Source: a virus. From it: 64,000 bases of DNA. Location of the stretch: positions 73,116-137,115 of the IMG/VR virus record IMGVR_UViG_3300014208_000032; one strand, written 5' to 3'. The position numbers and the translations under genes were made by a program. Positions 50,579 to 52,228 of the stretch are shown here, piece after piece. How positions within the stretch are numbered: position 1 is the first letter of the stretch; the number at the start of each line of letters is the position of its first letter. The notes under the pieces are model-generated. The model was not told where the DNA came from. It did no database searches and saw only the letters and a list, made by a program, of their open reading frames with translations.

Positions 50579-50828
50579 AAAACAAATAGATTCTATTTTA
50601 TTTTCCTTAAAAGTAATTGAATTAAATGGAAAAAAAATAGAATATGTTTGTTGTAGATTTTTGGGGGATAAAAAAAACATTAAAGAGGGTGTAAAAATAG
50701 AAAACGTTCGTAATGTTTTACCAAAATATTATTTTTTAGAAATTGAAGATGAGAATAAAATACTAGAACTCTCTTTGAAGGATGTTTTAAAAGTTTTACC
50801 AATAGAAAAAATGTTAAGTAGCGTGTGA
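50568..50828 (+). CDS. Hypothetical protein; its stop codon is supplied by the IS right end
   Basis: ORF overlaps the end of sbcC; the last codons GTG TGA straddle the IS boundary at 50825. Confidence 0.55.
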   Translation: MLSEKQIDSILFSLKVIELNGKKIEYVCCRFLGDKKNIKEGVKIENVRNVLPKYYFLEIEDENKILELSLKDVLKVLPIEKMLSSV

Positions 50829-52202
50829 ACTAATCACCCGTCTTTAACGGGTGATCTTCCTGCTTCAACGTCCAAACTTAACTTTGATTGCTCAAAGCCA
50901 GAGGTTTTAGACTCCACAGGCTTAATATCGGGCTGTCCCAGCCCTAATTCTTTTAAACCATAATTTTTAAGATTGATTCCTGCATTTTGGTCTCTATCAA
51001 TCTCATATCCACAAGACGGACAATTAAATATCCTATCTTGTAAAAGCAAACCTTTATGAACAAACCCACATTTTGAACAAGTCTTACTTGAAGCAAACCA
51101 TTTATCTGCTTCAATTAAAATCTTGTTGTTCCACAAAGTTTTGTATTTAAGTTGATACAAAAATGCACCGTAACCTAAGTCATTTACACTTTTTCCAAGC
51201 TTCAAACATTGAGCCATAGCTTTCAAATTAAGATTTTCAACTACTATCACATCATTCTCTTTTACAAGTTGTGTTGATAGTTTTTGAGTAAAATCTTTCC
51301 TTTTATTAGCAATTCGTCCATACAATAGATTAACTCTCATTTGAGCTTTCTTTCTGTTGTTTGAACCTTTCTGTTTCTTAGAAACTCTTCTTTGGAGGAA
51401 CTTTAATTTTTCTTCATTGTTTCTGTAAATCTTTTCAAAAGCTGGACTATTTCCTTCATCATCTACAAAAAAAGAATTGCAGCTCATATCCAAGCCCTTG
51501 GTTTTCAGACTCGGTTTAAGTTCTACTCCTTTTAAGATCAATTCCTGTTCAAAAAGAATTGAAACAAAATATTTTCCAGTTGCAGTCCTACTAACAGTAG
51601 CTTGCTTGATTTCTCCTTTTACATTTGTTCTTAAGTCTTTGAATTTAATCCAATCTATTTTTGGTAGCTTGACTTTTCTTGATTCAAAATCTATTTTGAT
51701 GTTATCATTAGTAATAGTTTCACGATAAGAATCTTTTCTACCTTTTCTATGGAACTTAGGGAAACCTGAGTTTCCTTTTCTTTTTCCAGAAAGTGACTTA
51801 AAGAAGTTTTGATAAGCACCTGACAAGTCCATTCTGGATTGTTGCAAAGCAACAGAAGAAACTTCTTTCAGGAATTCAAATTCAGCTTTGTATTCTTTTT
51901 CAGTTTTGTATTTTAGGTTGAAGAGGACTTTTTTGTCTTGACTAGATTGTTTCCAAGATTCATAATTTTTGATTTTTTCTGCAAGCATATTATTATACAA
52001 GAATCTGCAAGAGCCAATTGTTTTAAGGATTTGAACTTCTTGTTCTTGAGTAGGGTAGATTCTTATTTTTAGAGTTTTCAGGATTGTTCCCATTACTATT
52101 ATCTTGCTTCCTTTTTTTAATTAGTATCAGTTTTTGAAAAGGTTTGTAAAGCGCCATTCATATCACCGGCTGAAGACCGATGATTTTTCTGGCACAATGT
52201 GT
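50825..52202 (-). mobile_element. Non-autonomous IS200/IS605-family (IS1341-like, tnpB only) element, 1378 bp
   Basis: Right end GAAG-hairpin(ATCACCCGT/ACGGGTGAT)-TAGTTCAC; left end AAAA-hairpin(ATCATCGG/CCGGTGAT) preceded by TTTAT. Excision restores an intact stop codon and terminator. Confidence 0.8.
50834..52093 (-). CDS. tnpB: RNA-guided endonuclease TnpB
   Basis: HTH LKIRIYPT; RuvC I GLDM, RuvC II VVENL, zinc finger CSKCG/CPSCG, RuvC III DRDQNAGINL all intact. Confidence 0.95.
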   Translation of the reverse strand: MGTILKTLKIRIYPTQEQEVQILKTIGSCRFLYNNMLAEKIKNYESWKQSSQDKKVLFNLKYKTEKEYKAEFEFLKEVSSVALQQSRMDLSGAYQNFFKSLSGKRKGNSGFPKFHRKGRKDSYRETITNDNIKIDFESRKVKLPKIDWIKFKDLRTNVKGEIKQATVSRTATGKYFVSILFEQELILKGVELKPSLKTKGLDMSCNSFFVDDEGNSPAFEKIYRNNEEKLKFLQRRVSKKQKGSNNRKKAQMRVNLLYGRIANKRKDFTQKLSTQLVKENDVIVVENLNLKAMAQCLKLGKSVNDLGYGAFLYQLKYKTLWNNKILIEADKWFASSKTCSKCGFVHKGLLLQDRIFNCPSCGYEIDRDQNAGINLKNYGLKELGLGQPDIKPVESKTSGFEQSKLSLDVEAGRSPVKDG

Positions 52203-52204
52203 AT

Positions 52205-52228
52205 AAAAAACCGGATTTTATTCCGGTT
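52205..52228. terminator. Terminator hairpin (minus-strand U-run; likely bidirectional before IS insertion)
   Basis: aaaaaaccgga-tttat-tccggtt. Confidence 0.75.

Follow-up and report, generated by a model that had tools for sequence, protein, structure and literature searches.

We report a tnpB-only insertion sequence (IS) in a 64,000-nt stretch of viral DNA (from here: the window), which comprises positions 73,116 to 137,115 of the 159,813-bp IMG/VR virus record IMGVR_UViG_3300014208_000032 (G000:C1:73116-137115), a record estimated to be 69% complete. Judged by the homology of its ends, the element occupies 1,378 bp at 50825..52202 on the minus strand and is a non-autonomous member of the IS200/IS605 family (IS605 group) of the ISGst2 type. 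Taken as a whole, the locus is best explained, in our view with good probability, by an ISGst2-type insertion whose omega-RNA would direct cutting by the rules of its family and for which we propose homing. The more specific reading that the element belongs to a phage-resident TnpB/omega-RNA lineage of one AT-rich jumbo-myophage clade, had its bacterial-type promoter swapped for the phages' own AAGATAAT box and spreads by RNA-guided, TnpA-independent homing is put forward tentatively, as possible rather than probable. The element family itself is well studied; what is unusual is that this member resides in a large, novel phage and has a phage-type promoter box.

The 159,813-bp record has a G+C content of 30%, and its phage genes include those for a tail sheath, a major head protein, a head protease and a long tail fibre. 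A megablast search of the element region against 50,697 deposited phage records gave no match, nor did the major head protein match any of these records; a cultured relative is therefore absent from that collection. The host phage is a large AT-rich myophage, uncultured and virulent-looking. In the following, c1 denotes the window copy of the element, copy 2 a second tnpB copy in the same genome, and L-numbers the loci of relatives.

Ends, class and insertion site of the element

The ends of the element were set by comparison with copy 2, L005 and L013-L025. According to the alignment of copies, the right end (50825..50859, minus strand) consists of the DNA guide GAAG (50859..50856), a 9-bp hairpin (50855..50833) and the tip TAGTTCAC (50832..50825), which extends 8 nt 3′ of the hairpin and bears the transposon-encoded motif (TEM) TTCAC. 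Right ends of 14 copies were aligned, namely the window copy, copy 2, the viral contig L005, whose TnpB is 78% identical to that of the window, and 11 metagenome relatives. All of them finish in TCAC, 13 of the 14 in TTCAC and 12 in AGTTCAC, and the flanks diverge beyond this point. The consensus in L005 and the 11 metagenome relatives reads (A/G)G(T/C/G)TCAC, followed by unrelated downstream flanks, and the similarity of copy 2 to the window copy breaks off exactly at the base that equals window position 50825, after ...TTAGTTCAC.

The left end region (52094..52202, minus strand) is homologous to those of L005, L013 and L027 and comprises an 18-nt linker, a hairpin, the ATGAATGGC box and a sigma-70-like promoter match. 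By the IS608 geometry, the last four nucleotides of the linker constitute the left DNA guide AAAA (52188..52185, minus strand); they are followed on the same strand by the imperfect hairpin of 9 bp (52184..52162) and by the sigma-70-like match obtained by promoter scoring (52150..52123). The left cleavage site and transposon-associated motif (TAM), TTTAT, lies in phage DNA outside the element, within the T-tract of a terminator (52203..52207, minus strand). Left ends begin directly 3′ of TTTAT in nine elements (c1, L005, L013, L014, L015, L016, L020, L021 and L027), and TTTAT probably precedes the left end of L023, too. It is followed by ~9 variable nucleotides, a purine-rich box (AGAAAA in eight of nine), the 9-bp hairpin, which begins ~18 nt inside the cleavage point, and, in most copies, the motif ATGAAT(G/C)GC. 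Subterminal imperfect palindromes with similar arms, covarying across relatives, are thus found at both ends; terminal inverted repeats are absent and there is no target duplication at the junctions. In these alignments, end homology with at least 13 independent relatives is far beyond chance. It confirms the class and the exact boundaries that an earlier note on this DNA, made by a model from the letters alone, had given, and all coordinates and sequence strings of that note were correct on recheck. Deletion of 50824..52201 yields the same product as deletion of 50825..52202, and this 1-nt ambiguity is resolved because the family comparison sets the ends directly after TTCAC and TTTAT.

In IS608, the left cleavage point lies 19 nt 5′ of its hairpin and the right one 10 nt 3′ of its hairpin, with the four nucleotides 5′ of each hairpin foot serving as guides (PMC3201880). 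The window element resembles IS608 of Helicobacter pylori and ISDra2 of Deinococcus radiodurans in a left cleavage ~18–19 nt 5′ of the hairpin, a short tail 3′ of the right hairpin and guides at the hairpin feet, whereas it differs from both in its motifs TTTAT/TTCAC (TTAC/TCAA in IS608, TTGAT in ISDra2) and in lacking the tnpA that both carry. The left guide is AAAG in IS608 and AAAA here, the right guide GAAT in IS608 and GAAG here. By the IS608 rule, AAAA pairs with TTAT and GAAG with TCAC, all at the expected positions, just as had been read initially. The guide tetranucleotides are invariant in the family, so there is no covariation within it and the agreement is with ISGst2.

For ISGst2 from Geobacillus stearothermophilus, which has the TEM TTCAC, the dependence of both TnpB2 cleavage and TnpA excision on TTTAT was shown experimentally (PMC10055086). 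The window element has the identical TAM and TEM, and the prediction of TTTAT as its TAM is supported, as this motif precedes nine left ends and is the same as in ISGst2. In both, tnpB is the only gene and the element is non-autonomous; both have subterminal hairpins and DNA guides of 4 nt, and in both the 3′ end of tnpB overlaps an omega-RNA that continues into the flank. ISGst2 receives its TnpA in trans, and the window element would need the same. The two differ in that ISGst2 resides in a bacterial chromosome, whereas the window element is located in a large phage and has a promoter box abutting the tnpB ATG; the comparison of the two covers ends and architecture.

At least 118 IMG/VR contigs (loci L111-L228) contain the right-end signature TGAAGCAGGAAG-N18-30-AGTTCAC; hence, ISGst2-type omega-RNA ends are common in viral and proviral sequence. 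When species genomes were scanned with TnpB, a close copy was seen in neither bacteria nor archaea. The best cellular match, 43% identical, was L010 (JBHLMB010000193.1), a 5.8-kb contig from a metagenome-assembled genome of the Promethearchaeota (Asgard).

The element is inserted between an 86-aa phage open reading frame (ORF; 50568..50828, plus strand) and a convergent 591-aa phage gene upstream of it (52234..54009, minus strand). On the plus strand, 50820..50828 reads AGC GTG TGA, with the last codon and the stop coming from the tip of the element. Deletion of 50825..52202 joins ...AGCGT to ATAAAAAACCGG, resulting in AGC GTA TAA; GTG TGA has replaced GTA TAA and the 86-aa gene ends in Ser-Val-stop with or without the element. 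A bidirectional intrinsic terminator (52209..52228, scored on both strands) serves the convergent 591-aa gene; without the insertion it would serve the 86-aa gene as well, whose stop it would then adjoin. For the 591-aa gene this terminator and its T-tract are intact, and neither flanking gene is broken by the insertion. Junction arithmetic and terminator scoring on both strands hence uphold the claim of a protein-neutral insertion with preserved terminator. The unchanged protein end is partly automatic, because the split codon GT|N encodes valine for any N and stops are supplied by the tip: in two of the three reading frames, the conserved end of the element, read as its reverse complement GTGAACTAA, reaches a stop within three codons. 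The insertion may be neutral with regard to fitness.

For the 86-aa gene, its own terminator was displaced by 1.4 kb. The antisense of the omega-RNA stem GGGCTGGGACAGCCC together with a T-rich tail, at 50930..50944, scores as a plus strand terminator. This terminator-like hairpin is located ~100 nt past the new stop of the 86-aa gene and may replace the displaced one. Both c1 and L005 lie directly after a GC hairpin plus TTTTTTAT, i.e. an intrinsic terminator, and a hairpin is found just upstream of L023 and L027 as well; other sites have none. As the hairpin is missing at some sites, the site requirement is TTTAT, a motif that terminator T-tracts often supply.

The 86-aa protein belongs to no Pfam family and has no homologue besides itself. 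Homologues of the 591-aa protein are P0003 (78%, on a 3,330-bp ENA contig) and P0004 (54%, on a 79-kb JGI contig). Pfam searches further identified SbcCD-like genes and a PHP/DnaE polymerase with an intein near the element. The N-terminal piece of the PHP/DnaE polymerase is encoded at 54117..55532 on the plus strand, and its end is an intein/Hint fragment.

TnpB, the omega-RNA scaffold and its predicted guide

The tnpB gene (50834..52093, minus strand) encodes a protein of 419 aa that was assigned by Pfam and by alignment to ISDra2 TnpB. Matches to PF12323, PF01385 and PF07282 (HTH_OrfB_IS605, OrfB_IS605 and Cas12f1-like_TNB) were above the cut-offs, and the alignment to ISDra2 TnpB (8h1j/8exa) spans residues 6–385 with an E value of 3e-63. 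D202, E286 and D366/D368 (within a D366-R-D368 motif) align with the catalytic motifs of ISDra2, so that the RuvC D/E/D residues are kept and the three acidic residues noted before are indeed present. The zinc ribbon is kept as well, with the CxxC pairs C339/C342 and C358/C361. The nuclease is intact in sequence and is predicted to be active. Between c1 and L013 we calculated a dN/dS of 0.10 at a dS of 0.92; values were 0.09–0.24 for other pairs and 0.10–0.14 within the clade. Such ratios indicate that TnpB is under purifying selection.

RNA-guided transcription factors that arose from TnpB by domestication are known (PMC10705468), and a nuclease-independent regulator of this TldR type, or another function directed at the host, might also be considered for the window protein. 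Here, RuvC D/E/D residues, zinc ribbon and both transposon ends are all intact, and the guide has no match on the contig other than its own flank. A TldR-type domesticated TnpB is disfavoured on these grounds, and we consider such a role very improbable.

The 3′ part of the omega-RNA scaffold was delimited by a covariation alignment to 50825..50944 on the minus strand; the scaffold may extend further 5′. The alignment (A2) covered the last 180 nt of 14 elements and supports three helices: the GGGCTGGGACAGCCC stem, a nested CCUGU.../...GCAGG double helix and the terminal hairpin. In this alignment, 94.7% of the cells are paired and compensatory changes are seen at 21 of the 29 pairs. Covariation scored 0.607, compared with 0.06–0.19 in slid controls, and none of 500 shuffles was as good. 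The terminal hairpin is also the DNA hairpin to which TnpA binds, and there are two possible causes for its covariation; that of the inner helix has an RNA explanation only.

RAGATH-18 is the core of the TnpB right-end RNA (reRNA) of IS607 (PMC11061315), and the double-helix core of the window omega-RNA (CCUGUGGAG ... UGAAGCAGGAA; 50920..50857, minus strand) resembles its consensus. The single Rfam match, to RAGATH-18 (RF03064), reached 32.1 bits, whereas the gathering score is 44.9. Besides this sub-threshold score, the element differs from the IS607 systems in its TAM, which is TTTAT and not AGGAG, in the overlap of the RNA with the ORF and in the Y1 TnpA found in relatives. Membership in the IS607/RAGATH-18 reRNAs was rejected because of the low score and because the relatives have a Y1 TnpA instead of a serine recombinase as transposase.

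The tnpB ORF crosses the scaffold region and reaches to 9 nt from the tip of the element. In copy 2, the stop codon occurs 36 codons earlier and the catalytic core is intact, which argues that the tail of tnpB is conserved mainly as RNA. Following the family rule, the omega-RNA guide, and with it the target, is predicted to be ACGCTACTTAACATTTTTTC, the reverse complement of 50805..50824 (minus strand). It is read directly beyond the right end, at the place given in the earlier note. The only exact match on the contig to the first 16 nt of the guide is its own flank, where TTCAC stands in place of the TAM; other contig matches to these 16 nt with fewer than three mismatches were not found.

A phage-type promoter box and the forms of the family

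The sequence AAGATAA, found by motif enrichment, is located at 52099..52105 on the minus strand, 5 nt before the ATG of tnpB. The pattern AAG[AT]TA[AT] occurs 3–7 nt before 19 of the 163 called genes of the phage, with 0.85 expected (P about 2e-19), and 8–35 nt before 35 further genes, there usually with a Shine-Dalgarno sequence in between. Among the genes preceded by the box are those for the major head protein, the head protease and the tail fibre. The same box is present 3–5 nt before the ATG of non-IS genes in L005, L104/L105 (388-kb contig), L108, L146 and L206, all of which are distantly related AT-rich jumbo-phage contigs. By its recurrence and position, AAGATAA(T) looks like a clade-wide phage promoter that often gives rise to leaderless mRNAs, and the box at the tnpB ATG would yield a leaderless mRNA, too. 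A sigma-70 reading of the AAG[AT]TAAT box was rejected: the -35 element is absent at a spacing of 17 nt and TTG(A/T)C often abuts the box. The earlier note had spoken of a phage late promoter. A recurrent, oriented phage motif 5 nt before the ATG was indeed found; from the head, protease and tail-fibre genes that it precedes, assignment to a late class is plausible, but genes that are not obviously late carry the box, too.

Within the TnpB family, the box stands at the tnpB ATG in c1, copy 2, L005, L013, L017 and L027; in L005 it stands before tnpA as well. At the tnpB ATG of the remaining relatives, ACTAATTAAATATG is found instead. Box-bearing copies form two separate, well-supported groups on the TnpB tree, and it is only in these two sub-lineages that the box occurs. 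The sigma-70-like match in the left end, in contrast, is conserved across the family.

No Y1_Tnp match was obtained in the 159,813-bp record, in line with the claim that tnpA is absent from the element. A tnpA that could act in trans, as had been suggested, was not detected on this contig, and the scan of species genomes returned the distant TnpB match described above; a Y1 tnpA does exist in the relative L005. There, a Y1 TnpA of 136 aa (Y1_Tnp, E 3.8e-35) is encoded divergently between the left end and tnpB. In L027 and L015, the left end lies 450–530 nt upstream of tnpB, leaving space for a tnpA. The window copy, L013, L014, L016, L020 and L021 are tnpB-only, with the left end 90–165 nt upstream of tnpB.

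Approximately 75% of the tnpB genes in databases have no tnpA nearby (PMC10055086), and the tnpB-only state is therefore the norm. This fits a dead-end insertion brought about by TnpA in trans, which has persisted in a harmless spot, is intact through recency or past selection and does not home. The failure to find an empty or polymorphic allele in viral and metagenome contigs points in the same direction, as does copy 2, which lacks a recognisable left end and shows that decay occurs. However, the dN/dS of ~0.1 between the closest tnpB-only copies, c1 and L013, despite a dS of ~0.9, the maintenance of the omega-RNA structure by compensatory changes and the placement of the phage-type box exactly at the ATG in phage-resident sub-lineages all speak against a mere remnant, and we regard this explanation as rather unlikely.

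The search for empty alleles was based on the junction predicted for c1, in which the end of the 86-aa gene, as its reverse complement (...AGCGTATAA), would come straight after the terminator and TTTAT. Neither exact nor degenerate patterns of this junction were present in viral contigs or metagenome contigs. Scans of viral contigs with the 591-aa protein, the SbcC-like protein and an alignment of the 591-aa homologues did not recover the DNA of a relative, and tblastn of all ORFs of the genome against the fetched loci found distant relatives only (≤49% identity) and no sister phage.

Copy 2 is located outside the window at G000:C1:52892-54165 (L097:12892-14165), is 77% identical to the window copy and contains an ORF of 383 aa. 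It has the TTAGTTCAC tip of the window copy; a left end was sought by local alignment, with a score no better than random. The insert is flanked by a 14-nt direct repeat, AAAGATAATATTAT, which equals the promoter box and suggests that copy 2 was acquired or rearranged via the promoter sequence. Its predicted guide is promoter-like, and a TTTAT-adjacent site with two mismatches lies at the promoter of the head protease (C1:19839, minus strand).

A protein-less mini-element of the same subfamily, ~290 nt long, was observed on the minus strand of L222 (IMGVR_UViG_3300001533_002715:1-5084), where it ends at L222:70. It consists of a left end directly after TTTAT, the AAGATAAT box with ATGG, the omega-RNA scaffold fused directly to it and a right end almost identical to that of the window copy. 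By this arrangement it is a PATE-like element whose guide RNA would be driven by the phage promoter box. Another right-end match, L146, is present on the same contig.

The right-end hairpin of L017 is nearly identical to that of the window copy and the left-end hairpin of L027 resembles the window's, whereas the TnpB proteins of L017 and L027 belong to a different, well-supported clade of the TnpB tree. Sequence comparison thus identifies L017 and L027 as mosaics in which ends and promoter were exchanged relative to the tnpB body; this suggests that elements recombined or that acquisition took place repeatedly.

Proposed spread between co-infecting phages

By the single-strand "peel and paste" rule, the ancestor of the element inserted directly 3′ of the TTTAT that ends the T-tract of the bidirectional terminator, and the element has retained both TnpA-recognition hairpins with their guide tetranucleotides. 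The tnpB gene would be transcribed from the phage-type box abutting its ATG and perhaps, by the family rule, also from the older sigma-70-like promoter in the left end. TnpB would then process the 3′ end of its own transcript to an omega-RNA with 16–20 nt of flanking phage DNA as guide, and the complex would cut TTTAT plus ACGCTACTTAAC..., a sequence predicted to be present only in an insertion-free genome. The resident copy would be spared, having TTCAC instead of TTTAT before the target. Omega-RNA processing, guided cutting and resident immunity are family rules taken from ISDra2 and ISGst2 (PMC8612924, PMC10055086, PMC10278001). Without TnpA there is no excision, and only a relative that lacks the IS and shares the cell could provide targets. 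During a mixed infection, the cut in such a relative would be repaired from the IS-bearing genome and the element would be copied in (non-restorative homing), whereas movement to a new site would need a Y1 TnpA in trans, such as the one in L005.

A 2026 review uses the term "non-restorative homing", describes a TnpA-independent, TnpB-facilitated spread of IS605 elements among plasmids and names co-infecting phages as a theoretical target (PMC13565253); in the literature we found no paper showing TnpB homing between phages. Homing of the window element into co-infecting relatives is a reasonable proposal. For the narrower notion of a lineage adapted to phages, we point to the occurrence of the AAGATAAT box on tnpB, on the tnpA of L005 and on the protein-less omega-RNA mini-element L222.

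Several points weigh against the main explanation as a whole. No empty allele was found in the viral and metagenome contigs, so for this copy the donor joint is a prediction. As the contig is ~69% complete, a tnpA may lie elsewhere in the phage or in its host, and the purifying selection on TnpB may stem from times when tnpA-bearing copies existed. The box also stands before genes that are not obviously late, namely neighbours of DnaE with no known function and, at a distance of 30 nt, the gene for ribonucleotide reductase. In addition, the RAGATH-18 match remained below the gathering score, and DNA modification of the phage could block TnpB.

The proposed behaviour resembles that of the T-even homing endonucleases SegF, SegB and I-TevI in that the element-free allele of a co-infecting relative would be cut and the element copied by recombinational repair. 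It differs in the mode of recognition, which is by protein in the T-even enzymes and would be by an RNA guide and the TAM here. Free-standing homing endonucleases of T-even phages also act against competitors (PMC13565253), and TnpB might likewise serve as a weapon that destroys co-infecting IS-free phages, by killing or by localized marker exclusion, with the element being kept by selection on the phage. The phage promoter box would fit such an action during infection. On present sequence data, however, the outcome is indistinguishable from homing, a single target of 16–20 nt would be lost by one TAM mutation in any relative, and there is no evidence for the competitors; we hold this explanation to be improbable.

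If RNA-guided homing between phages is true for the window element and its relatives, it would be an RNA-guided counterpart of the homing endonucleases of the Seg and Mob type in T-even phages. The element adds a compact TnpB with the TAM TTTAT, which may be of minor interest for tool development. Since TAM, guide and target are all readable, and with L005 providing a form with tnpA and L222 a protein-less one, the family would offer a clean natural system for the question of TnpB homing.

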